Virus record (IMG/VR): IMGVR_UViG_2563366829_000015
DNA: 7,395 nucleotides
Strand: one strand, 5' to 3'
Source of the DNA: a virus
Lineage: Duplodnaviria; Heunggongvirae; Uroviricota; Caudoviricetes
In this document: one piece after another, positions 1 through 7,395 of the stretch
Layout: each line of letters starts with the position of its first letter
Position numbering within the stretch: position 1 is the stretch's first letter
Notes under the pieces: model-generated
Seen by the model: only the letters and a program-made list of their open reading frames with translations
Database searches by the model: none
Told to the model about the DNA's origin: nothing
Translations under genes and position numbers: made by a program

Positions 1-1131
1 TCAAATGACCAGTTTTTTCCACTCCTTACCGCGTACATCGTTGTAAATATCGGTCATTTTTTGATTCGAATGGCCTAGCAAAATTTTGGTATCAACCCCC
101 TGCTCTCTGAACAATCGCTCTGATAAAGATCTCTGCTCATGGAAAGAGGGTGGGGTGCCATTAGCACGCCAGTTGTAATCCACAGAATCCCGGGCTTTTT
201 TAAATGCAACGGTTAATGTTGCTGGCTTAACCATCCCGCCGCGCTTAGCTGTCCCTTTCGCGTGATGGTGGTGCAATAGCCACGGACTAAGAACGCAATC
301 GCGGCAGGATGACACTACATCATCCAGGGTGAGATTTAATTTATCGCAACGCAGAGCCAGAGGGATGGCAATCCGGGTTCCTGTTTTTTGCTGTTCGACA
401 TGAAGATAACCATCCCGGATATCCGAAAATTGCATTTTGCAAATATCTGAAAGGCGCTGGCCTGTCATCAGTGCCAGCAGCATACCGCGCTGTAAAAAGT
501 AACCATTCTTTTCCGCTGCGTTATAAATCATCATCCACTCATCAAAAGTCAGTCGCTGTCTTGATATCCGCACCTGCGGTTTTTTTGCCGATTCTGCAGG
601 GTTAAAGCCTGGCGGGACATCGCCCGTTTGCTGAGCTTCCCGGAAAACATCGATCAGTACTTTCCTGAAAATTTGTCCCATTCTGTTATGTCCTCTGGCC
701 TTGTACTCTTCCAGTACTGATACCACATCTTTTACGGTTATGGCATCTAACGGTCTGGTGCCAAAACGTTCATCAAATACCCTGAGAGGGGCCGCTTTCT
801 GTTTCAGCGTGTTGAGTTTGATCTCGCCGTTTTCATATCTTTCCTGTTGAATTTTTCTGTAATTATTCAGAAAAATGGTAACGGTTGATGAACCGCCGGT
901 ATCACTAATAATTTTCTCCTGCAGACTGAGCATTTGTTCCATTTGCTGCCGGGCAAGACGGCTGTTCGCTTCTGCTGCAATAGTTTCTGCCAGTTTCTGG
1001 TCAATACTGCCGAGACCGTGATTTTTGCCTGTTATGGGATGCCTGTAACGCCAGTAAACTTTGTTATTTCTTTTGTCAAAATACGGAGATAATCCCGGAA
1101 CATCGGTTTTATATTTTCGCGGGCGCGCCAT
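1..1131 (-). CDS. int: Lambda-family tyrosine integrase (site-specific recombinase), 376 aa, apparently complete
   Basis: ATG at 1129-1131 (minus) and stop at 1-3 (minus-strand TGA). The translation matches the lambda Int C-terminal catalytic region in pattern: DGYLHVEQQKTGTRIAIP, PPSFHEQRSLSERL (H-x-x-R box), LLGH, and a candidate nucleophile Tyr in TDIY. Gene order int-xis with a 23-nt overlap is as in lambdoid phages. The attachment site would lie left of the window and is not visible. Confidence 0.92.
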   Translation of the reverse strand: MARPRKYKTDVPGLSPYFDKRNNKVYWRYRHPITGKNHGLGSIDQKLAETIAAEANSRLARQQMEQMLSLQEKIISDTGGSSTVTIFLNNYRKIQQERYENGEIKLNTLKQKAAPLRVFDERFGTRPLDAITVKDVVSVLEEYKARGHNRMGQIFRKVLIDVFREAQQTGDVPPGFNPAESAKKPQVRISRQRLTFDEWMMIYNAAEKNGYFLQRGMLLALMTGQRLSDICKMQFSDIRDGYLHVEQQKTGTRIAIPLALRCDKLNLTLDDVVSSCRDCVLSPWLLHHHHAKGTAKRGGMVKPATLTVAFKKARDSVDYNWRANGTPPSFHEQRSLSERLFREQGVDTKILLGHSNQKMTDIYNDVRGKEWKKLVI

Positions 1132-1357
1132 CTTCCAGTATCCTCTTCAAAGCAGGGTGATCTGTGGCGATCACCTCCGGCTTGTTTACCATTCCGACAA
1201 AGCGAGCTTGCGGATCCACTCGCCAGCGTCTTCCAACTTTTTTGGGGAGAGGAAATATCATTCCGGCTTTAGCGTATTTACTTAACGTACTCGGAGTAGG
1301 GACCGGTTCACTGAATTCCTCTTTTGCCCACTCAGTGAGCAGAATAAGTCTTGCCAT
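1109..1357 (-). CDS. xis: Excisionase (Xis-like winged-helix DNA-binding protein), 82 aa
   Basis: ATG at 1355-1357 (minus); the 3' end overlaps the int start by 23 nt. Motifs LLTEWAKEE and MIFPLPKKVGRRWRV resemble lambda Xis (LTLQEW / RIFPPPVKDGREY). The Shine-Dalgarno is weak. Confidence 0.8.
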   Translation of the reverse strand: MARLILLTEWAKEEFSEPVPTPSTLSKYAKAGMIFPLPKKVGRRWRVDPQARFVGMVNKPEVIATDHPALKRILEDGAPAKI

Positions 1358-1421
1358 GAGCGTCGTTCGCTAATCATGGTCGCCGCCACTATAGCTGGTG
1401 GGCAACGACCGGGGTTGAACA

Positions 1422-3893
1422 TTAAAAATCAGCCTGATTTGGGATCAGTTTTTGCCAGATAGCTGAAACGTATTTTGCCTGGTAACGGGCGTCATCAAGT
1501 GCATTATGGCGCTCACCTTCGAATGGAATAGCCGTTCTGGCATCGAAGTCTATGGCTTTCCCCAGCTCAACGATTGTGCGTACATCGCGATCGTTGTAGT
1601 AACGCCACGGGCAGGGGATCCCCTGCCGTTCGTATGAACGGCGCAAAATCGTGTTGTCGAAGTTGGCTCCATTTCCCCAAACCTGAACAAAAAATTCACC
1701 GGAGTTTTCGTCGATAAATTCCCGCAATTGTAACAGTGCATCATCTAACGGGATTTCATCGGTCATAATGGCAGATTGCGCTTCGCGTGATTGCTTAAGC
1801 CACCATTTAATGGTGTCCCGATCAATGACCCCGCCAGCAGTTTCCAGATCGATAGTCTTACTAAATTCCGGTCCCATATCTCCGGTTTGCGGATCGAAAA
1901 ATATTGCACCTATTGAGATGATCGGGGCATCAGGATTTTTTCCCATGGTTTCAAGGTCGATCATTAGATGGTCACACGTCCTGCTGGTGGATGTGATTTC
2001 TTGATGACCGTTCACCTTAATTGAGTGATCTGCCGTCTCGCCAGTTTCATTATCGCTATCGTGATGCTGATTGCCGCCAGTGTTCTCCTTGTGTGGATGT
2101 TCAGCGCCTTCCATTTCCTCCGGATCATCTTCCTGAACTTCAGGCTGATACTCTTCATCGAATGTTTCCTGGTATGTTGCGTCGCCCATTACCGCGCCAC
2201 AATCAGGGCAGTTGCCGCCGCCGGTCTGACCGCAGGCGGTGCAGACTTTTTCCACTTCCTGTTGCGCCACTGATTCAGGCTGTTTCGTTTCTGGCTCGTT
2301 TTGTAACGCATTTGGGCTGTTTTGTTCCGCTTTCTGGTCGTTCTGTTCCGTTTCTTGCTGGTTCTGGTTCACAGAATCGCGGGTCTGGTTCCCCTTAACC
2401 CATTTCGGATCATTCGGGTCGCTAATCCCTTCAACAAATTCACCACGTGATACTGCAAGCAGTTCATCGGCGTCAGGCTGGCTGATATTGGCTGCCTGCA
2501 TAATTTTGTTTACTTCGTCAGCGGTAACTTTTACTGACCCTGGTTGTGCGGTCGTGTCAGATGCACCAGTATTTTGTTGTGAACCTGAGTATGTACCGTT
2601 TTTGCGGGCGAAATATTCTTCTTTCGTGATTTCAGTAGCCCCAGCAGACAGCGCCTTATCCAGACCAGAAAGTTTGTTTGCGCGACCGTATTTTTCGCCA
2701 TCCTTGTCGGTGAAGAGGAAGTAGAACGGCCCCTCACGTTCTACAGATGGTTCGACTTCCACTTTGCATTCGGTTTTTTCGTTGTCCGGAATTGCCGTTT
2801 CCACTGCATCAGTTTCTGGTACTGGCGACGAGAGAGTATCAGTTGCGCTCTGATTTGTTCCTTCATCTTCAAACACGCCCTTTGTAGTCAGGTATTCAGT
2901 AATGTATTTGTTCAGTGCCACAGGGTCTTTGTGAATGTCGATCGGACGTTCACGGACAAGGCCAAAAATAGTCTGGCGGTCGTAGCGAAGGGCATCAGGC
3001 TGTTTGCGCATTGATGCCGAGATACGCTTCCAGTCTTCGCGGTCGTTGTCGATAACTTCATTTTTTGCCCAGCGATGGATGCTGCCGTCAATGTTTCCGG
3101 CATCCACATCACCAGGCCAGAGAGCGTAGGCCAGTTCGTCATCCAGTGTTTTCCATGTCTGCTTGTATTCGCGATGAATGGCAGCAATGACCGGGTTGAT
3201 TTTTCCTGTTGAATTTTCAGTGTGCTGTTGATTGGCTCTGGCGCGGGCGAGATCAACAACAGACGTGTATTTTCCGGCTTCCTTGCGTTCACCTTCGCGA
3301 CGTTTTTTCCAGATGCGCATCTCTGCCTGAATTTCGGGCCATTTGGCACCAGGCTTACATTTATGCTTAACCCACCCGATGGCATGCAGCTTAAGCTCCG
3401 GATACATGGCGTTAACTTCTGGCATTTTCATCAACGCTTCAACGATATGTCCGTCGAATGTTGCCATGTCTTCCTGCAACAGTTCCTGCGCGCTAATCAC
3501 CATATCAACGGTGATGTTTTCACATGTGTCGAACTTAACCATGACAGCGTTCTGTACTTCAGGGGCCAGCTTGTCAAAAGTGACGTTCATCGGATCTGAT
3601 TCAGTCTCAACCGGGACAAAGGAAGCAGACGCCTCATCCCAGCGGTTTTCCTGCATATATTCAGCATCCCAGGAATCTAGGGCAGGGCGGGGTATACCGG
3701 GTTTATCCTCGCAGACAAGAAATTTATAAGCGCAGTCCTGAGCAGCCGGATAATGTTCCAGGAATTGCCAGTGAAATTTTGCGCGGGCGCGACGTTCATC
3801 ACCGGCTTCAATGGCAGTGGCTACAGCGACTGCACCTTCTTCCTTTATTGCCTGTTCGTCCGGAATGGCGGCGCAAATAAAGACTTTACTCAT
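1422..3893 (-). CDS. Large multidomain prophage exonuclease, 823 aa: N-terminal region of unknown fold, Q/N/E-rich linker, CxxC-x7-CxxC zinc ribbon, acidic linker, C-terminal DnaQ-like DEDDh 3'-5' exonuclease domain
   Basis: ATG at 3891-3893 (minus) with a GAGGT SD about 9 nt upstream. The C-terminal ~184 aa (nt ~1425-1976) carry the three DEDDh motifs: Exo I MIDLET, Exo II GNGANFD, Exo III HNALDDARYQAKY. The zinc ribbon CTACGQTGGGNCPDCG is at nt 2202-2243. The position, directly upstream of xis-int, is where lambdoid prophages carry exo/recE-type genes. Whether the N-terminal ~500 aa relate to the RecE (exonuclease VIII) N-terminal region cannot be decided without a search. Confidence 0.88.
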   Translation of the reverse strand: MSKVFICAAIPDEQAIKEEGAVAVATAIEAGDERRARAKFHWQFLEHYPAAQDCAYKFLVCEDKPGIPRPALDSWDAEYMQENRWDEASASFVPVETESDPMNVTFDKLAPEVQNAVMVKFDTCENITVDMVISAQELLQEDMATFDGHIVEALMKMPEVNAMYPELKLHAIGWVKHKCKPGAKWPEIQAEMRIWKKRREGERKEAGKYTSVVDLARARANQQHTENSTGKINPVIAAIHREYKQTWKTLDDELAYALWPGDVDAGNIDGSIHRWAKNEVIDNDREDWKRISASMRKQPDALRYDRQTIFGLVRERPIDIHKDPVALNKYITEYLTTKGVFEDEGTNQSATDTLSSPVPETDAVETAIPDNEKTECKVEVEPSVEREGPFYFLFTDKDGEKYGRANKLSGLDKALSAGATEITKEEYFARKNGTYSGSQQNTGASDTTAQPGSVKVTADEVNKIMQAANISQPDADELLAVSRGEFVEGISDPNDPKWVKGNQTRDSVNQNQQETEQNDQKAEQNSPNALQNEPETKQPESVAQQEVEKVCTACGQTGGGNCPDCGAVMGDATYQETFDEEYQPEVQEDDPEEMEGAEHPHKENTGGNQHHDSDNETGETADHSIKVNGHQEITSTSRTCDHLMIDLETMGKNPDAPIISIGAIFFDPQTGDMGPEFSKTIDLETAGGVIDRDTIKWWLKQSREAQSAIMTDEIPLDDALLQLREFIDENSGEFFVQVWGNGANFDNTILRRSYERQGIPCPWRYYNDRDVRTIVELGKAIDFDARTAIPFEGERHNALDDARYQAKYVSAIWQKLIPNQADF

Positions 3894-3985
3894 TTTGTTT
3901 TACCTCATTACAGATTTAAGGGTGAACAAATCCCTGCCATTGCTGGCATATAAGAATGAAACCGGATATTTATTACGGAACTGTT

Positions 3986-4177
3986 TTAAAGACCTGCCGG
4001 GATTTCGTTATTATCCTGGTGAATGACTTTATCGACCGGGTAACAGTTACCGGGAATTTTCTGTTCGGTTGCTGCAGTCACACACTCCTGCATTGTCCTG
4101 TGAACACTGACTGCAATATCAACTGGCTCTCCGGAAACAAGAAAAACTGTCAGAACAAGTGCAAATGCTGTATTCAT
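3986..4177 (-). CDS. ydfD: YdfD-like small membrane-anchored lysis protein, 63 aa
   Basis: ATG at 4175-4177 (minus) overlaps the dicB stop (ATGA, translational coupling), with an AAGGA SD about 8 nt upstream. N-terminal hydrophobic helix (NTAFALVLTVFLVSG) followed by a soluble Cys-containing tail. Size, position directly downstream of dicB and sequence agree with my recollection of Qin-prophage YdfD. The ORF track's longer 81-aa version (start 4231) has a poorly spaced SD. Confidence 0.72.
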   Translation of the reverse strand: MNTAFALVLTVFLVSGEPVDIAVSVHRTMQECVTAATEQKIPGNCYPVDKVIHQDNNEIPAGL

Positions 4178-4362
4178 TGTGCACATCCTTTTTGTATCGG
4201 ACGTAAACGGGCCAGCATTGAAAGAATGCATATTTTATTTAATAACTCCCGTTCGTGTTTTCTCTTGTTAATGGCATCTTCAGTAAATACAGGGTTACTG
4301 ATAGTGACACCAATTTCAAAACAACCTTCAGACGTATTAACGTTTGGTAATAACGTTTCCAT
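4174..4362 (-). CDS. dicB: DicB cell-division inhibitor (MinC-dependent FtsZ-ring inhibitor), 62 aa
   Basis: ATG at 4360-4362 (minus) with a GAGGA SD 7 nt upstream. The sequence METLLPNVNTSEGCFEIGVTISNPVFTEDAINKRKHERELLNKIC...KGCAQ matches my recollection of E. coli DicB almost residue for residue, and the gene lies directly downstream of DicF as in the dicBF operon. Confidence 0.88.
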   Translation of the reverse strand: METLLPNVNTSEGCFEIGVTISNPVFTEDAINKRKHERELLNKICILSMLARLRPIQKGCAQ

Positions 4363-4545
4363 TATCGCGTCCTCAACAATGAATTTTGTGATGCAGTGCC
4401 TGGTGCCTCCAGGTGACGTTAACCAGTTAACAATTAACGCCGGGTTAGTTGATGCTCGTTACGCCCGTAAAATACCGCCTTACTGCTTTAACTGTTCCGC
4501 GTGCGCATAGCCGCATTCACCGCATCACAAAATTCACTTTAAAAA

Positions 4546-4598
4546 GGGCGGCAGAGCAGTCACGGAGTAAAACTGATACCGCCAAATGTCACCAGAAA
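4546..4598 (-). ncRNA. dicF: DicF small regulatory RNA (Hfq-dependent sRNA processed from the dicB operon transcript; represses ftsZ and other mRNAs)
   Basis: The minus strand reads 5'-TTTCTGGTGACATTTGGCGGTATCAGTTTTACTCCGTGACTGCTCTGCCGCCC-3' followed by T5 (plus 4541-4545 AAAAA). This matches the 53-nt DicF RNA as I recall it, with possibly one substitution, and it sits ~180 nt upstream of dicB. The exact ends are taken from memory of the K-12 RNA and could be off by a few nt. Confidence 0.8.
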
Positions 4599-4933
4599 AT
4601 TGATAACAGAGGGCGTTGTAGCGGGGTTGTCACTTAAGCGTATGGTCAACCTGACAACCCGGTGCATTTTCTGGAGCAATGGAGGAAACCCCAGCCATAC
4701 TTACCGCCGCGCCATTTCGCGGAGTGCCACAACCGGAAGCGCACGGTCGAACTAAATTTAACGACACCGTACAGAGAGACCAATTTCGCCGTGCGCTTTC
4801 GCGTTATGCCCTGACTTTTCAGGGACATATCCTTTCAGTAAACTGTCAGTGCCGGATGCTCACCCGTGTCCGGCGCACGCACTCCACCTGACCAGTGGAG
4901 AACTCCTTAATTACCAACCCTCAGGAGGGTGAA

Positions 4934-5212
4934 ATGGATAAAAAGCAAATTGAGGCCCTGCAATCTATTATTGAAGAACAAGATGAAGCTATCAGGATTC
5001 TTTCATATCGCACTGATATGATACTAAATATGCTTTCTGCATTAACGGCTGCGCTTGGTGGTACAAAAACAAACGTATACCGCGAAGTTGTTATTCAACA
5101 GATAGATAAATTTGAAAAAACCATACCAGGTATTAATGCTCATCTTGCAGAACAAGAGAAAGACCATGCTCTTATGGCAATTTCTTCAGTAGCTCTCCCG
5201 AAAGTTGAGTAG
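4934..5212 (+). CDS. Hypothetical protein, 92 aa, acidic/helical, opposite-strand insert within the early-left operon
   Basis: ATG at 4934 is preceded by a perfect AGGAGG SD (4922-4927, 6-nt spacer). It is the only plus-strand gene among the minus-strand neighbours. No recognisable catalytic or transmembrane motifs. The ORF track's upstream GTG start (4895) lacks an SD. The local sequence is visibly more AT-rich than the flanks. Confidence 0.6.
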   Translation: MDKKQIEALQSIIEEQDEAIRILSYRTDMILNMLSALTAALGGTKTNVYREVVIQQIDKFEKTIPGINAHLAEQEKDHALMAISSVALPKVE

Positions 5213-5573
5213 TTTTAATTGTTGTTTTGAAATAATCACTGCTTTCACATTTGAGTGATTTCATGGCAATCCAAATGCGGGCCTCTGTGCCTGCATTTGG
5301 TTCCAGTTGCTGTAGACGTTTTGCGTCTTCCAAAAGTAAGGCGATAATGTGTTTCAGCTTCTCATCATTTGCTTGATTCTTGTTTTCAGGCGAATTCTGT
5401 CCGCCGAATAGGCGCTTCTCTTCATACAGACCTATAAAGGCACGACGCACGTTACCGGATATAGTATCGATGGTTTCCTTTTCTACAGTACTCAGGTCAA
5501 GAGTCGCCAGTTGAGAGCGAACCACATTCGCTGCCATTTCCTGGAATGGCATTGGTAAATCTTTAAATTCCAT
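5172..5573 (-). CDS. Hypothetical protein, 133 aa, soluble, co-directional with the early-left operon
   Basis: ATG at 5571-5573 (minus) with a GAGG SD 6 nt upstream, 22 nt after the stop of the upstream 72-aa ORF. No recognised motifs. The 3' end overlaps the 3' end of the convergent 92-aa ORF by 41 nt (5172-5212). Confidence 0.65.
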   Translation of the reverse strand: MEFKDLPMPFQEMAANVVRSQLATLDLSTVEKETIDTISGNVRRAFIGLYEEKRLFGGQNSPENKNQANDEKLKHIIALLLEDAKRLQQLEPNAGTEARIWIAMKSLKCESSDYFKTTIKTTQLSGELLKKLP

Positions 5574-5595
5574 TATTAGCCTCGTTGGTTAGCTA

Positions 5596-5814
5596 TTAAC
5601 GTGGGTATGTAACCATTCTGGCAATGCTTAATGCCGCTGCTTTTTCCAGCCTGGTGATATCCTGCTCCAGAGCGGACAGATTTTCAGCCTGCTTAGTCCT
5701 GGCTTCATTGGCCCATTTCAGATCCTGCACTGCATTAATTTTCTGGCGCATCCACTCATAAAGTTCATCATCGGTATAGTCTGGCGCGATGATGACGGGT
5801 TCTCGTTTCTGCAT
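5596..5814 (-). CDS. ydfC: YdfC-like small protein, 72 aa (third ORF of the dicB-type operon)
   Basis: ATG at 5812-5814 (minus) with a GAGGA SD 6 nt upstream. Size and position (third small ORF, upstream of dicF/dicB) match YdfC of the Qin dicB operon. The symbol is assigned from size and synteny; I do not recognise the sequence from memory. Confidence 0.65.
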   Translation of the reverse strand: MQKREPVIIAPDYTDDELYEWMRQKINAVQDLKWANEARTKQAENLSALEQDITRLEKAAALSIARMVTYPR

Positions 5815-5843
5815 ACTGATTCCTCGCGGTGCTGTTTCGCTTA

Positions 5844-5972
5844 TCAGCCGTTAGATTTTCCCGAACTGGAAAGCGCCTGTTTAAATTCACTGAAGCTGAG
5901 AGCTTCTTCGCCTTCGGCAAGACCATCGAAGTATTCTTCGTAAGCCTTTTCCATGATTGTGTCGAAATCCAT
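5844..5972 (-). CDS. ydfB: YdfB-like small protein, 42 aa
   Basis: Found by manual translation (too short for the ORF track): MDFDTIMEKAYEEYFDGLAEGEEALSFSEFKQALSSSGKSNG. ATG at 5970-5972 (minus) lies 1 nt after the stop of the upstream 51-aa ORF (TGAtATG), suggesting coupling. The 42-aa size and second position in the operon match Qin YdfB / Rac YdaG-type proteins. Confidence 0.6.
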   Translation of the reverse strand: MDFDTIMEKAYEEYFDGLAEGEEALSFSEFKQALSSSGKSNG

Positions 5973-5973
5973 A

Positions 5974-6129
5974 TCACTCACCTGAGTTTCTTTCCAGCCA
6001 GCGACGGGCACCATTTTCGGTTTTAAACGTTTTGCTTTTGGTATACGTCATCGCGGTGAATGTGCCGTCCTGGTTGGGAAACACGCCGTACACCAGAGAT
6101 TCGTTGTTGCCAAGCTCGATAGTATCCAT
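5974..6129 (-). CDS. ydfA: YdfA-like small protein, 51 aa (first ORF of the early-left operon)
   Basis: Found by manual translation: MDTIELGNNESLVYGVFPNQDGTFTAMTYTKSKTFKTENGARRWLERNSGE. ATG at 6127-6129 (minus) with a GAGG SD 5 nt upstream. The 51-aa size and first position downstream of the repressor-proximal promoter match Qin YdfA / Rac YdaF. Confidence 0.6.
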   Translation of the reverse strand: MDTIELGNNESLVYGVFPNQDGTFTAMTYTKSKTFKTENGARRWLERNSGE

Positions 6130-6200
6130 GCTGACCTCATTTCCCCTTAACGCCGGGTGGCGGAACTAAAACCTACAGCGCCGTGCTGTTCTTGATAGAA

Positions 6201-6229
6201 ATATTAGTAACGCGGATATTTTAAGTCAA
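6201..6229 (-). promoter_or_regulatory. Sigma70 promoter of the early-left (ydfABC-dicF-dicB-type) operon, PL-like
   Basis: On the minus strand: -35 TTGACT (6224-6229), 17-nt spacer, -10 TAATAT (6201-6206). An AT-rich UP-like region lies upstream (6230-6320), and the predicted TSS is ~65 nt upstream of the ydfA-like ATG. The layout is nearly identical to the plus-strand promoter at 6893-6921. Confidence 0.5.
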
Positions 6230-6326
6230 CAGTATGGCGTATGATATTTTTGATTTGGTAACTATGTAAATGTTTTTTCAAGGGAAAAATATTAGTTATA
6301 CAGCTGATTTGCAGAAGTTATGGCAC

Positions 6327-6357
6327 AAAAAAACCGACTAAGACGTCGGTTTTTTTG
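6327..6357 (-). terminator. Bidirectional rho-independent terminator downstream of the repressor gene
   Basis: Plus strand reads A7-ACCGAC-taagac-GTCGGT-T7: a perfect 6-bp stem with a 6-nt loop flanked by A and T runs. It starts ~25 nt after the repressor stop (6383), so it insulates the downstream early-left promoter from repressor read-through. Confidence 0.7.
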
Positions 6358-6382
6358 TTGTGGATGGGGTAGTGAGCGGTGG

Positions 6383-6844
6383 CTACTGGTTACGTTTCTT
6401 TAGTGCCAGCATGTTCTCGAAGGCTTCCTCGTAGAGCTTGTTTAGTCCACGTAGCTGGTTAAGGAGTTTGGCTTTTTCTGACGCAGGTAGAATCTCGAAG
6501 AGGTTAAGTAACTCTGCCTGTTCTTCATTGACCAGCCTCCATCCTTTGCCTGAAAAGTTATCATCATAAGTATCTGATGATCTTACATAATTCATTAAGT
6601 CTTTAAGGTCTTCTCGAATGTCCTCTGGTTTTACCTTTAACAGAGCCGCAAATTTTAGCGCAGCGTCGGTATTTACCGGTATCTTGCCGTTCAGATACTG
6701 GCTAACGGTGCCTTGAGATTCGAATCCCAACAACTCAGCCGCCAGCTCTTGAGTCAGCTTCAGCTCTTTTTTTCTTGCATTCCATGCGGCTTTTAAATTC
6801 TTGCTCGCTTCTGGAGTTGCAATCACTTCGCGTGTTTTTTTCAT
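6383..6844 (-). CDS. Prophage immunity repressor, DicA/RacR-type HTH (XRE-family) protein, 153 aa
   Basis: ATG at 6842-6844 (minus). N-terminal HTH_XRE-like segment (LKLTQELAAELLGFESQGTVSQYLNG); C-terminal helical region (AELLNLFEILPASEKAKLL) with no S24 peptidase Ser/Lys autocleavage motif, as in DicA/RacR-type repressors rather than lambda CI. It is divergent from a cro-like gene and co-directional with the operon it would repress. No SD is visible upstream, so the mRNA may be leaderless. Confidence 0.85.
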   Translation of the reverse strand: MKKTREVIATPEASKNLKAAWNARKKELKLTQELAAELLGFESQGTVSQYLNGKIPVNTDAALKFAALLKVKPEDIREDLKDLMNYVRSSDTYDDNFSGKGWRLVNEEQAELLNLFEILPASEKAKLLNQLRGLNKLYEEAFENMLALKKRNQ

Positions 6845-6850
6845 ACATAG

Positions 6851-6878
6851 AGTTTATTTGTTTTACCAATATTATCAA
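6851..6878 (-). promoter_or_regulatory. Putative PRM-like promoter for the repressor gene (leaderless transcript)
   Basis: On the minus strand: -35 TTGATA (6873-6878), 16-nt spacer, -10 TAAACT (6851-6856), ending ~6 nt before the repressor ATG with no SD. It sits back-to-back with the PR-like -35, as in repressor/cro switches. Weak hexamers, so low confidence. Confidence 0.3.
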
Positions 6879-6892
6879 AGATAGTCTGGCTA

Positions 6893-6921
6893 TTGATCTT
6901 TAAAATTAGCGGGGCTAATAT
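6893..6921 (+). promoter_or_regulatory. PR-like sigma70 promoter for the cro-like gene; probable operator region
   Basis: -35 TTGATC (6893-6898), 17-nt spacer, -10 TAATAT (6916-6921), about 30 nt upstream of the ATG at 6952. The spacer and -10 region closely resemble the minus-strand promoter at 6201-6229. Confidence 0.45.
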
Positions 6922-6951
6922 TTGCTCGAGGCATAACGTAGAAGGTTGGCT

Positions 6952-7188
6952 ATGAACTTAAGAGACTATTTAAAAGAGAAACATATCACCCAGCTACAGT
7001 TTGGGAAGCTAACGGGTTTATCTCAGGTGCATGTAAGTCGAGTGCTGGGGGGCTATGAAAGATTCAGCCCTGAAAAAGCATTACGTGTTGCTGAAGTAAC
7101 GAATTTCGAGGTTACACCTCATGAACTCCGGCCTGATATTTACCCGAATCCAACCGACGGCTTACCTGTTGGATTCAAGGCTAACTGA
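6952..7188 (+). CDS. Cro/DicC/YdaS-like HTH regulator, 78 aa, 3' end abutting or interrupted by an IS element
   Basis: ATG at 6952 with a GAAGG SD 6 nt upstream; the ORF track's TTG at 6946 is less likely. HTH-like segment ITQLQFGKLTGLSQVHVSRVL. It is divergent from the repressor. The stop codon TGA at 7186-7188 coincides with the first three bases of the IS terminal inverted repeat. Confidence 0.75.
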   Translation: MNLRDYLKEKHITQLQFGKLTGLSQVHVSRVLGGYERFSPEKALRVAEVTNFEVTPHELRPDIYPNPTDGLPVGFKAN

Positions 7189-7395
7189 ACCGCCCCGGGT
7201 TTCCTGGAGAGTGTTTTATCTGTGAACTCAGGCTGCCAGATCATCGTTTCCGATGGAAGCATAATAAGCTTTTTCTGCTTCTGCCGGAGGAGTATGGCCC
7301 AGCCTTTCCAGCAATCGTCGATTGTTATACCAGTCCACCCACGTGAGTGTGGCCAGTTCCACTTCTGCACGGTTTTTCCAGCTCTTACGGTGTAT
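7186..7395 (-). mobile_element. IS3-family insertion sequence (IS629/IS1203-like), partial: right terminal inverted repeat plus 3' end of the transposase gene; continues beyond the window
   Basis: Plus strand from 7186 reads TGAACCGCCCCGGGTTTCCTGGAGAGTG, which matches my recollection of the terminal inverted repeat of the IS629/IS1203/IS3411 group (IS3-family TG...CA termini). Directly inward is a transposase C-terminus on the minus strand. Confidence 0.75.
7228..7395 (-). CDS. IS3-family transposase (OrfB / rve integrase-core) C-terminal fragment, 5'-truncated by the window edge
   Basis: Manual minus-strand translation gives ...SWKNRAEVELATLTWVDWYNNRRLLERLGHTPPAEAEKAYYASIGNDDLAA* with the stop at 7228-7230. 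This is the conserved C-terminal end of IS3-family transposases. The frame has no Met in the window, so it is absent from the ORF track; the track's 7140-7370 ORF is a different frame. Confidence 0.8.
   Translation of the reverse strand: MHRKSWKNRAEVELATLTWVDWYNNRRLLERLGHTPPAEAEKAYYASIGNDDLAA

Follow-up and report, generated by a model that had tools for sequence, protein, structure and literature searches.

The window, by which we mean the whole 7,395-nt stretch of viral DNA analysed here (IMG/VR record IMGVR_UViG_2563366829_000015), holds the genes and features collected in Table 1. Its sequence is 100% identical to a region adjoining ompW in E. coli MS 196-1, the only complete genome with a match at that level, and the arm that it represents occurs in about 145 records of complete E. 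coli genomes, as well as in phage records of PPompW. Integration at the ompW 3' end, replacement of that 3' end by phage-supplied sequence and an integrase of the intE type were all found. The window belongs to a lambdoid prophage of the PPompW type that sits in the 3' end of ompW, and covers the early-left (PL-type) arm on the int side of that prophage. Read along the minus strand, the predicted order runs from an HTH repressor of the non-SOS type and a terminator through the promoter, ydfA, ydfB, ydfC and two extra ORFs to DicF, the coupled dicB and ydfD genes, the 823-aa exonuclease, xis and int. In a lysogen this operon would be silenced by the repressor, and derepression would give rise to a polycistronic transcript of the early-left operon; no N-like antiterminator was identified for passage of the DicF terminator to dicB, xis and int.

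Table 1. Features of the window, with the basis on which each was assigned.
Feature	Position	Strand	Basis
Tyrosine integrase (Int), 376 aa, lambda Int type, ompW-3'-end specificity	1..1131	-	Pfam and lambda Int alignment
Excisionase (Xis), 82 aa, overlaps int start by 23 nt	1109..1357	-	PF07825
Exonuclease, 823 aa, C-terminal 3'-5' exonuclease domain	1422..3893	-	PF16473, phrog_2082
ydfD, 63 aa, DUF1482, predicted lysis protein, start overlaps dicB stop (ATGA)	3986..4177	-	PF07358
dicB, 62 aa, MinC-dependent division inhibitor (by homology)	4174..4362	-	PF05358
dicF–dicB spacer and dicB 5' UTR, flanks conserved, centre variable	4363..4545	-	K-12 alignment
DicF sRNA, 53 nt, G12A allele, followed by U run	4546..4598	-	Rfam RF00039
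DicF precursor leader, homologous to K-12 ydfC–dicF spacer	4599..4919	-	blastn block and alignment
656-bp segment absent from Qin, two ORFs	4920..5575		synteny break
92-aa ORF, convergent and overlapping with 133-aa ORF	4934-5212	+	phrog family of no assigned function
133-aa ORF in 656-bp segment	5172-5573	-	phrog family of no assigned function
ydfC	5596-5814	-	RefSeq, PHROG, 96.3% to K-12 ydfABC
ydfB	5844-5972	-	RefSeq, PHROG, 96.3% to K-12 ydfABC
ydfA	5974-6129	-	RefSeq, PHROG, 96.3% to K-12 ydfABC
Candidate early-left promoters (dicBp-equivalent)	6201..6270	-	consensus match
Perfect 14-bp hairpin, A and T runs at its sides, after repressor gene	6325..6358		inverted repeat, 100% complementary
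Prophage repressor, 153 aa, HTH_3	6383..6844	-	Pfam HTH_3, PHROG repressor families
cro-like YdaS gene, cut from 91 to 78 codons by IS	6952..7188	+	Pfam YdaS_toxin, HTH_3
Left end of 1310-bp IS3-family element	7186..7395	-	junction mapping, RefSeq transposase

At the integrase end, the view of the initial annotation that int and xis are intact held up, as evidenced by the uninterrupted ORFs and Pfam domains of both genes. Int contains Arm-DNA-bind_1, Phage_int_M and Phage_integrase domains, aligns over residues 14-375 to lambda Int structures (5j0n and 1z1b; E about 1e-55) and keeps the six catalytic residues (R226, K249, H331, R334, H354 and Y363); Xis matched the Pfam Exc profile at 31.9 bits (cut-off 23) and is annotated as an excisionase by RefSeq also. 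Comparison of Int with K-12 intQ by tblastn gave no match. The disruption initially ascribed to the K-12 integrase was borne out by the K-12 annotation, in which IS2E interrupts intQ and ydfE, both pseudogenes. The exonuclease ORF, free of internal stops, matched PF16473 at 227 bits and phrog_2082 over residues 1-823 of 823, and its first 256 aa share 96.5% identity with what is left of K-12 ydfE ahead of the IS2E cut, making it the intact counterpart of that pseudogene. PGAP calls this intact exonuclease a pseudogene in one genome and does not do so in another with the same sequence.

At the opposite end of the window, the repressor carries no S24 peptidase domain; by position it corresponds to DicA and CI, and it resembles DicA only over a 42-aa C-terminal stretch (38% identity). 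The hairpin that follows its gene is likely a bidirectional terminator. Rfam matches to STnc370, IS128 and FuFi-1 were sub-threshold, picked up only this hairpin and were dismissed; a match to STnc100 in the dicF–dicB spacer (31 bits, below the gathering score of 47) was likewise taken as not meaningful. A promoter scan returned 8 sites versus 5.1 ± 2.5 in shuffles, and the candidates TTTACA-18-TATCAT (10 of 12 matches) and TTGACT-17-TAATAT may, from their resemblance to the consensus, function as early-left promoters. The region that contains them is unrelated to Qin dicBp, homology to Qin beginning only at window position 6167. The IS element is marked by a 3-bp target duplication (AAC), and strains that lack it match only window positions 1-7185. 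It splits the cro-like gene and the PR operon, so that ydaT and the replication genes are cut off from PR and cro; in VR50 the cro-like YdaS protein is 91 aa long.

The promoter-proximal genes of the operon are ydfA, ydfB and ydfC, after which comes the 656-bp segment. Its 133-aa and 92-aa ORFs matched phrog_1363 (E=3e-45) and phrog_18692 (E=8e-63), respectively. A defence or toxin-antitoxin role was considered for this segment and found to be unsupported, because Pfam and PADLOC searches of both ORFs (and of YdfC) returned no matches and the PHROG families were uninformative as to function.

DicF is placed between ydfC and dicB in the prophage early operon by RefSeq annotation and by synteny with Qin. 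The RF00039 match (4546-4597, minus strand) scored 77.0 bits (E=3.3e-16), against a gathering score of 48 bits, and covered the full model (positions 1-52 of 52), while the feature itself has the same extent as the 53-nt DicF annotation of K-12. Alignment showed 52 of 53 nt to be identical to K-12, the single change being G12A (GACGUUUGG -> GACAUUUGG), and the initial identification of this sRNA-like stretch as a homologue of DicF was thereby confirmed. Nucleotides 13-58 of the DicF region are the same as in K-12, the minimum-free-energy fold of the terminator hairpin is the same (-15.9 kcal/mol), and the 3' region, which pairs with ftsZ (PMC5069750), is unchanged. DicF would be freed through processing by RNase E and RNase III or via termination at its own hairpin, and the freed RNA would be expected to pair through this 3' region with the ftsZ ribosome-binding site. 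The sRNA is common: it was found in about 3950-3970 of 5426 complete E. coli genomes (about 73%), at no more than 7 copies per genome, and the dicBF operon has already been reported from many prophages (PMC5069750), its function and regulation being the subject of an established literature (PMC5069750, PMC6832061, PMC8835842, PMC4967827, PMC10448788).

The identity of DicB was equally well supported. The 62-aa ORF is uninterrupted in its full context, matched PF05358 at 129.2 bits over residues 1-62 of 62, and is identical to K-12 DicB at 56 of 62 residues with no frameshift, the differences being K2E, Q36H, V47L, L55P, M56I and P57Q; it is one residue away from the second commonest phage allele in IMG/VR. 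Residues 3-35 are the same as in K-12, and the N-terminal segment needed for activity (about residues 1-14, including L5) is intact. Four of the six changes lie at positions that experiment has shown to be tolerant of change or deletion: K2A, K2G and K2R keep toxicity, K2E affecting the same position with a glutamate outside the set assayed, and the last 8 residues, where L55P, M56I and P57Q fall, are dispensable for division inhibition (PMC4967827). By homology to the characterised protein, this DicB would be expected to act with MinC to block Z-ring assembly, and it may inhibit ManYZ-dependent entry of phage DNA (PMC6832061, PMC4967827). It had been suggested that differences from K-12 might alter the target range of the module; for the C-terminal changes in DicB this suggestion was unsupported, given that natural alleles are hypervariable over the C-terminal third and that its last 8 residues are dispensable (PMC4967827), and for the effect of DicF G12A on xylR it is plausible.

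YdfD matched PF07358 at 88 bits (residues 4-61 versus profile positions 1-57 of 57), is identical to its K-12 counterpart at 59 of 63 residues and represents the commonest allele in the IMG/VR sample. The 81-aa ORF at 3986-4231 in the program-made ORF list is an in-frame upstream extension only, the true start lying at 4177. The translational coupling of ydfD to dicB proposed initially agrees with the ATGA overlap of stop and start, an arrangement seen at 84 of the 95 dicB-containing IMG/VR loci. YdfD would bring about lysis through inhibition of IspG, and these expectations for all three members of the module derive from their near-identity to characterised K-12 genes. The differences from K-12 in DicF, DicB and YdfD are common natural alleles in E. 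coli genomes and in the IMG/VR sample. We consider it highly improbable that the cassette is non-functional and in decay, with no more than a historical likeness to K-12: although the host prophage holds an IS and several morphogenesis genes of MS 196-1 are annotated as pseudogenes, every ORF of the cassette is full length with a full-length profile match, the terminator and ftsZ-pairing region of DicF have been retained, the alleles recur across many phage contigs, and the DicB changes are mostly at change-tolerant positions (PMC4967827).

The initial annotation had taken the element for a possible less decayed relative of Qin (Kim), the cryptic prophage of K-12. Qin does have the same ydfABC–dicF–dicB–ydfD–exo order, with a repressor gene upstream in the same orientation and the same ATGA coupling, and identity of 92-96% extends from ydfA through exonuclease codon 256, which is the only block common to both. 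Within it, blastn paired window positions 4919-3127 with 19063-20845 of the K-12 locus record (92.7%), and synteny breaks exactly between 19062 and 19063 of that record; Qin is without the 656-bp two-ORF segment that the window has between ydfC and dicF. The resemblance ends there: intQ of Qin is disrupted whereas the Int of the window is intact and a different integrase, the att site of Qin is ydfJ rather than the ompW 3' end, Qin has DicA/DicC immunity whereas the repressor and operator region of the window are different, and Qin ydfE is cut by IS2E whereas the window exonuclease is whole. Since neither the integrase nor the att site nor the immunity region is related to its Qin counterpart, the element is not a relative of Qin in its integration module, and the notion of a better-preserved Qin failed, only the dicBF block being common. 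Equation of the element with the Qin prophage itself was also rejected (ompW and not ydfJ, Int unlike intQ, repressor marginally related to DicA).

The PPompW prophages (Nakamura et al. 2021, PMC8112680; LC567818-LC567841) occupy the same integration locus as the element, and their int and xis genes are annotated intE and xisE. Their records matched the window with 94.8-94.9% identity over 68% of its length in three aligned pieces, int and xis included; the annotations beneath the match name ydfC, the exonuclease and several hypothetical proteins. These matches leave uncovered the window's immunity region (about 6175-7185). The att region, about 121-125 bp of the ompW 3' end, is alike in the two (121 bp is given for PPompW; PMC8112680), and PPompW prophages are also typically defective, IS-bearing and prone to recombination-driven inversions (PMC8112680). 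In the O145:H28 PPompWs there are loci for type III effectors and a secondary attB that Stx phages use; the version in VR50 and MS 196-1 ends instead in tail-fibre, methyltransferase and DUF4376 remnants.

The cassette is shared more widely than the integration module. The isolated temperate coliphages Tritos (OV696610.1) and mEp460_ev081 (LR597641.1) have an exonuclease–ydfD–dicB–DicF–ydfC segment 94-96% identical to window positions 1414-6174, and DicF, DicB and YdfD are annotated in the Tritos record. Their integration modules differ, window positions 1-1413 remaining unmatched, and both are deposited phage genomes whereas the window comes from an IS-disrupted prophage. Lambda offers a parallel in Kil, a small inhibitor of host division whose gene lies in the early-left operon, with the immunity region on one side and exo/xis/int on the other, and which is made on derepression. 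The parallel with DicB is one of analogy only, with no sequence relationship. Kil reaches FtsZ by way of ZipA, whereas DicB works with MinC; to our knowledge lambda has no DicF-like sRNA. The dicF–dicB–ydfD module is a widespread, published phage cassette and not a special relic. Already published, too, are the activities of the dicBF cassette and its spread over many prophages, the PPompW family with its excision and its defects, and prophage-mediated inversions.

The linkage of the module to intact int and xis had been taken initially to indicate a less decayed and possibly excisable element, which would be expected to lie between direct att repeats. The prophage that contains this arm in VR50 and M15 is lambda-like and measures ~52-55 kb. 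Both ends of the VR50 prophage carry an identical 31-bp att core, inside about 125 bp of ompW-3'-end homology and in direct orientation, and the ends of the M15 prophage (ompW on one side, an ompW fragment and yciE on the other) follow the VR50 layout. M15 is 99.8% identical to the window; its prophage has the same IS, is contiguous and retains both att sites, so that the source of the window could still be excisable.

A different arrangement was found in MS 196-1, where the far end of the prophage lies in mlrA and is without the att core, and where a repeat search of attL against this actual far end detected nothing in common. The 31-bp cores of this genome are at about 2,874,271-2,874,301 (minus) and 2,256,899-2,256,929 (plus), 617 kb apart and inverted, with the ompW fragment–yciE junction at 2.257 Mb; the record between 2.60 and 2.65 Mb contains chromosomal genes only, from ynfB to rsxA. 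Reciprocal prophage hybrids were found, with the exchange point in the gpJ/tail-fibre region. An inversion involving two prophages was rejected as a model because zinT, not yciE, adjoins the end of the reciprocal mlrA-int hybrid, and at least three prophages have therefore swapped arms. The MS 196-1 chromosome has been rearranged more than once, as read from one public assembly in which several morphogenesis genes (terminase, portal, capsid and decoration genes among them) are frameshifted, possibly through sequencing errors. The att sites are parted because of homologous exchange between prophages: lambdoid prophages, at least three in number, would have recombined and so moved the cognate attR to its distant, inverted position, and action of Int and Xis in this genome would then invert the 617-kb segment and leave the prophage unexcised.

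On these grounds the proposal of a less decayed, still excisable Qin relative, from which Int and Xis would remove the whole prophage upon induction, is in our judgement unlikely, with the evidence divided between lineage and copy. For the lineage, Int and Xis are intact with conserved catalytic residues, the same arm lies within a contiguous prophage between ompW and an ompW 3' fragment plus yciE in VR50 and M15, and mitomycin C treatment leads PPompW genomes to excise and circularise (PMC8112680); to this extent, and on the direct att repeats of VR50 and M15, the initial suggestion of a less decayed and excisable element stands. It does not stand for MS 196-1, the sole 100%-identical genome and as such the likely source of the window, with its displaced and inverted attR and its IS; the att arrangement of that genome is an outcome that the initial annotation had named as refuting the idea. 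In addition, the cro-like gene and PR operon are broken by that IS, the PPompWs examined earlier were all packaging-defective (PMC8112680), and neither integrase, att site nor immunity region is that of Qin. The prophage in the best-matching genome is crippled and probably unable to excise itself, and the joint explanation that we favour with high confidence is that the window is a PPompW early-left arm bearing a widespread, already described cassette, the copy represented here being defective.

The single nucleotide change in DicF may have consequences for one of its targets. The xylR-pairing region has been defined experimentally as the 5' end of the sRNA (PMC5069750), and G12 occupies the middle of the 13-bp duplex predicted between DicF nt 5-17 and xylR +8 to +20, in which A12 would introduce an A·C mismatch and shift the predicted duplex energy from -20.3 to -14.5 kcal/mol. 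A compensatory change in xylR is absent since the site is the same in 5386 of 5407 genomes, and G12A is a minor allele that tracks this ompW-prophage lineage (152 records versus 3055 with the K-12 allele) and is largely restricted to it, in about 150 of 5426 complete genomes. These observations are consistent with a retargeted sRNA that keeps repression of ftsZ and in which control of xylR, and possibly of other 5'-end targets, is lost or weakened, a reading that we put forward tentatively. However, 7 and 5 base pairs persist on either side of the mismatch and with Hfq are perhaps sufficient, and the duplex predictions leave out intramolecular structure and Hfq. The predicted manX pairing of A12 DicF was the same or slightly better. 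Full-length duplex energies for ftsZ, pykA and manX were set aside, given that duplexfold omits the DicF hairpin, and the xylR 5'-seed result alone was used. Moreover, G12A is an ordinary polymorphism with no selection signal seen, because the Rfam DicF consensus has A at position 12 and A12 occurs in 13% of IMG/VR DicF copies. Taken jointly, the two proposed outcomes (G12A as a natural separation-of-function allele and, separately, an inversion of 617 kb driven by Int and Xis in MS 196-1) are in our estimation improbable.

Intact int and xis genes beside a cargo module are no proof of mobility, and the far end of such an element must be inspected. The natural DicF allele offers a ready-made probe of how the 5' seed acts on xylR. 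If the loss of xylR control were true, distinct prophage lineages would have distinct metabolic side-effects upon induction.

All 7395 bases of the window were 100% identical to E. coli MS 196-1 (NZ_CP146681.1, 2,866,728-2,874,122), and strain M15 was 99.8% identical; about 20 other complete genomes carry bases 1-7185 at 99.9-100% identity, and 145 records cover 80% of the window or more. In the RefSeq annotation the window adjoins ompW and forms the left arm of a lambda-like prophage. Phage records of the PPompW family, which is integrated at the ompW 3' end and described in PMC8112680, matched at 94.8-94.9% over 68% of the window, int and xis included, and the element is a PPompW-type prophage. 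The minus strand reads, in order, repressor, hairpin, promoter-like hexamers, ydfA, ydfB, ydfC, a 133-aa ORF, DicF, dicB, ydfD, exonuclease, xis and int, which is the layout of a standard lambdoid phage early-left (PL-type) operon. The inverted repeat that separates the repressor gene from the promoter of the operon is likely a bidirectional terminator, and it accounts for weak Rfam matches to STnc370, IS128 and FuFi-1.

Features of the prophage arm, in window positions
Feature	Position	Strand	Length	Remarks
int	1-1131	minus	376 aa	uninterrupted; expected Pfam domains
xis	1109-1357	minus	82 aa	uninterrupted; expected Pfam domains
exonuclease	1422-3893	minus	823 aa	
ydfD	3986-4177	minus	63 aa	Pfam DUF1482/YdfD, 88 bits
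dicB	4174-4362	minus	62 aa	Pfam DicB full length, 129 bits
DicF	4546-4598	minus	53 nt	exact counterpart of the K-12 DicF annotation
92-aa ORF	4934-5212	plus	92 aa	full-length match to phrog_18692, function not assigned in PHROG
133-aa ORF	5172-5573	minus	133 aa	phrog_1363, function not assigned in PHROG
promoter-like hexamers	6270-6201	minus		
perfect hairpin	6325-6358		14 bp	arms ACAAAAAAACCGAC/GTCGGTTTTTTTGT; A and T runs to either side
HTH repressor	6383-6844	minus	153 aa	
cro-like ydaS	6952-7188			diverges from repressor gene

The initial annotation had recognised DicF nearly base for base and DicB nearly residue for residue, and the database matches and alignments agree with it. DicF matched RF00039 at 4546-4597 (77.0 bits, where the gathering score is 48, E = 3.3e-16 for the whole window) over 52/52 model positions, and dicB and ydfD follow directly 3' on the same strand, coupled as proposed by an ATGA in which the dicB stop overlaps the ydfD start. 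An 81-aa ORF at 3986-4231 in the mechanical ORF list was rejected as a mere upstream in-frame extension, the ydfD start lying at the ATGA in both RefSeq and K-12. Aligned with the K-12 Qin locus, dicF–dicB–ydfD showed a mean column identity of 95%: DicF is homologous with G12A as its sole substitution, DicB is identical at 56 of 62 residues (K2E, Q36H, V47L, L55P, M56I, P57Q) and YdfD at 59 of 63. Over the dicF–dicB spacer, Rfam matched STnc100, a Salmonella sRNA, below threshold (31 bits vs 47, at 4330-4548); this stretch holds a hairpin, GUCACCUGGAGGCACCAGGCAC, perfectly conserved with K-12, and the spacer centre (about 4440-4500) is diverged. The conserved part may be a dicB 5'-UTR or processing element.

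Relative to K-12 Qin, blastn returned two collinear blocks, window 6167-5576 against ydfABC (96.3%) and window 4919-3127 against the ydfC–dicF spacer, dicF, dicB, ydfD and ydfE (92.7%), the latter stopping exactly at the IS2E cut in K-12. Between them the window has a 656-bp segment (4920-5575) that Qin lacks, with the 133-aa and 92-aa ORFs, which are convergent, share 41 nt at their 3' ends and matched nothing in Pfam or among PADLOC defence families; the 92-aa ORF runs antisense to the early-left transcript. Whereas ydfE of Qin is a pseudogene, the exonuclease of the window is the intact form, with 96.5% identity over its first 256 aa to what remains in K-12. No similarity to Qin intQ could be detected in Int, and the repressor resembles DicA only in 42 C-terminal residues (38% identity). 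The Qin homology extends only 38 nt upstream of ydfA, so promoter and operator are not those of Qin. In sequence terms, then, the element has a cargo block in common with Qin and integration and immunity modules of its own. The dicBF cassette and its wide spread across different prophages have been described (PMC5069750), the cassette occurs also in the isolated temperate phages Tritos and mEp460, and PPompW att sites, excision, defects and prophage-driven inversions have been published (PMC8112680); the observation is thus a known module correctly recognised in a known prophage type, all of it described before.

The element had also been proposed to be less decayed than Qin and possibly excisable, with complete int and xis. 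The latter point was borne out, both ORFs being uninterrupted with their Pfam domains in place; Int residues 14-375 align with lambda integrase structures (E about 1e-55), all six catalytic residues (R226, K249, H331, R334, H354, Y363) are present, and the int/xis module is probably competent. Just beyond window position 1, in the ~45 nt from the ompW stop to the int stop, three tandem copies of a 12-13-nt unit containing CTGCAAAAC (19960-19997 of the MS 196-1 locus extract L001) separate the att homology from the stop codon of the integrase; these could serve in the P' arm as arm-type sites for Int binding. In MS 196-1, PGAP/RefSeq reports an internal stop in the exonuclease gene and labels it a pseudogene. 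The 823-codon frame has zero internal stops, and strain VR50, which matches bases 1-7185 at 100.0%, has the gene annotated intact (WP_016238688.1); the label is probably an annotation artefact.

Defects were found elsewhere. After base 7185 comes a 1310-bp insertion, an IS3-family element whose target is duplicated over 3 bp (AAC); it occupies window 7186-7395 and runs on to L001 28495. Its terminal repeats (TGAACCGCCCCGGG...) are presumably those of an IS629/IS1203-like element. The insertion follows codon 78 of the cro-like ydaS, shortening it from 91 to 78 codons, lies 26 nt before ydaT, and cuts ydaT and the replication genes off from PR. Among the matches listed, the IS junction was matched in one piece by MS 196-1 and M15 only, and 23CRST038 covered the whole window in three separate pieces. 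For MS 196-1, frameshifts are annotated in the genes for the terminase large subunit, portal, head decoration and major capsid proteins (L003, a second extract, 35302-41982) and an internal stop in lom, whereas the VR50 counterparts of the late genes are intact except for the tape-measure gene; the frameshifts could reflect real decay or homopolymer assembly errors. The copy most likely represented by the window is defective for lytic growth.

A search for attL/attR repeats gave different answers in different strains. The VR50 copy of the arm is part of a ~52 kb prophage with ompW at one end and a residual ompW 3' fragment followed by yciE at the other. The aligned junctions share about 125 bp of ompW-3'-end homology, in agreement with the published PPompW att of 121 bp (PMC8112680), with a 31-bp perfectly identical block, CAGTGTGGTACATGGATATCGATACCACCGC, at its left edge. 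Because attL carries the phage-supplied ompW end and attR the native end to the right of this block, we infer that the crossover would lie in or near it. The M15 prophage shares the IS of the window and is likewise flanked by ompW and by an ompW fragment plus yciE, and the PPompW lineage of this arm generally has proper att sites as flanks. In MS 196-1, however, the prophage starting at this attL ends inside mlrA, beside btsS, where a repeat search with attL did not find the 31-bp core. The core is found instead with the native ompW fragment, yciE and tail-fibre and methyltransferase genes of VR50 type, at 2,256,899-2,256,929 (plus strand); the position of attL is about 2,874,271-2,874,301 (minus strand), 617 kb away and inverted. 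An int/xis arm of mlrA type is moreover joined to a prophage body ending at zinT, so arms have been swapped among no fewer than three lambdoid prophages, those of ompW, mlrA and zinT, giving the hybrids ompW-int...mlrA', mlrA-int...zinT and ...tail-ompW'-yciE (extracts L001, L003, L006, L007, L009). The MS 196-1 prophage is collinear with that of VR50 (99.4%) from int to about 44.7 kb, into gpJ, which places the exchange in the tail-tip or tail-fibre region. Gene order around the MS 196-1 terminus is rearranged more than once, as where ynfB to rsxA, at 2.60-2.65 Mb and in the ascending order of K-12, directly precede the segment from metG to btsS. Inter-prophage inversions of this kind are documented, PPompW included, and mitomycin C treatment leads published PPompWs to excise and form circles that are not packaged, all being judged defective (PMC8112680). 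The intact int/xis and the VR50 att cores speak for excisability in the lineage, but if the copy is that of MS 196-1, attL × attR recombination cannot excise the prophage.

While the cassette parts and their order come from our analysis, the mechanism that they suggest draws on the K-12 literature. The repressor, which has an HTH_3 domain, would hold the operon off; since Pfam found no S24/LexA-type autocleavage domain in its 153 aa, induction would probably be of antirepressor type or stochastic, as with DicA and Rem (PMC10448788), rather than by RecA cleavage. DicF would be freed from the polycistronic RNA by RNase E and RNase III (PMC10448788) and would repress ftsZ and, to a variable extent, metabolic mRNAs (PMC5069750); DicB with MinC would block division and inhibit ManYZ-dependent phage entry (PMC6832061), and YdfD would cause lysis through IspG inhibition (PMC8835842). 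No N-like antiterminator was found to carry transcription past the DicF terminator to dicB, exonuclease, xis and int.

The proposal that differences from K-12 could alter target range has support from prediction for DicF with xylR and was unsupported for DicB. DicB lacking its last 8 residues still inhibits division, and K2 tolerates substitution (PMC4967827), so L55P, M56I, P57Q and K2E are unlikely to matter for division inhibition; in the IMG/VR sample the window DicB is one residue off the second commonest phage allele, the C-terminal third is highly variable among natural alleles, and the window YdfD is the commonest allele. Of 5426 complete E. coli genomes, about 3950-3970 have DicF, and one genome can carry as many as 7 copies. 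An exact match to the K-12 58-mer occurs in 3055 records and to that of the window in 152, close to the 145 records with this arm; A12 was found in 16, and window-identical DicF in 9, of the 120 IMG/VR contigs listed, and the Rfam consensus itself has A at position 12. Nucleotides 13-58, comprising the terminator hairpin and ftsZ-pairing 3' region, are identical to K-12, and the predicted fold is the same. G12 falls in the 5' single-stranded region that pairs with xylR by experiment (PMC5069750). With G12, DicF nt 5-17 and xylR +8 to +20 are predicted by RNAduplex to pair perfectly over 13 bp (-20.3 kcal/mol), whereas with A12 a central A·C mismatch splits the predicted duplex into 7 and 5 bp (-14.5 kcal/mol). 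The xylR site is identical in 5386/5407 genomes, and thus there is no compensatory change. The predicted effect of G12A on xylR is the one computationally supported part of an altered target range. We consider it rather unlikely that DicF-A12 is a natural separation-of-function allele; if it is, it would be of modest interest.
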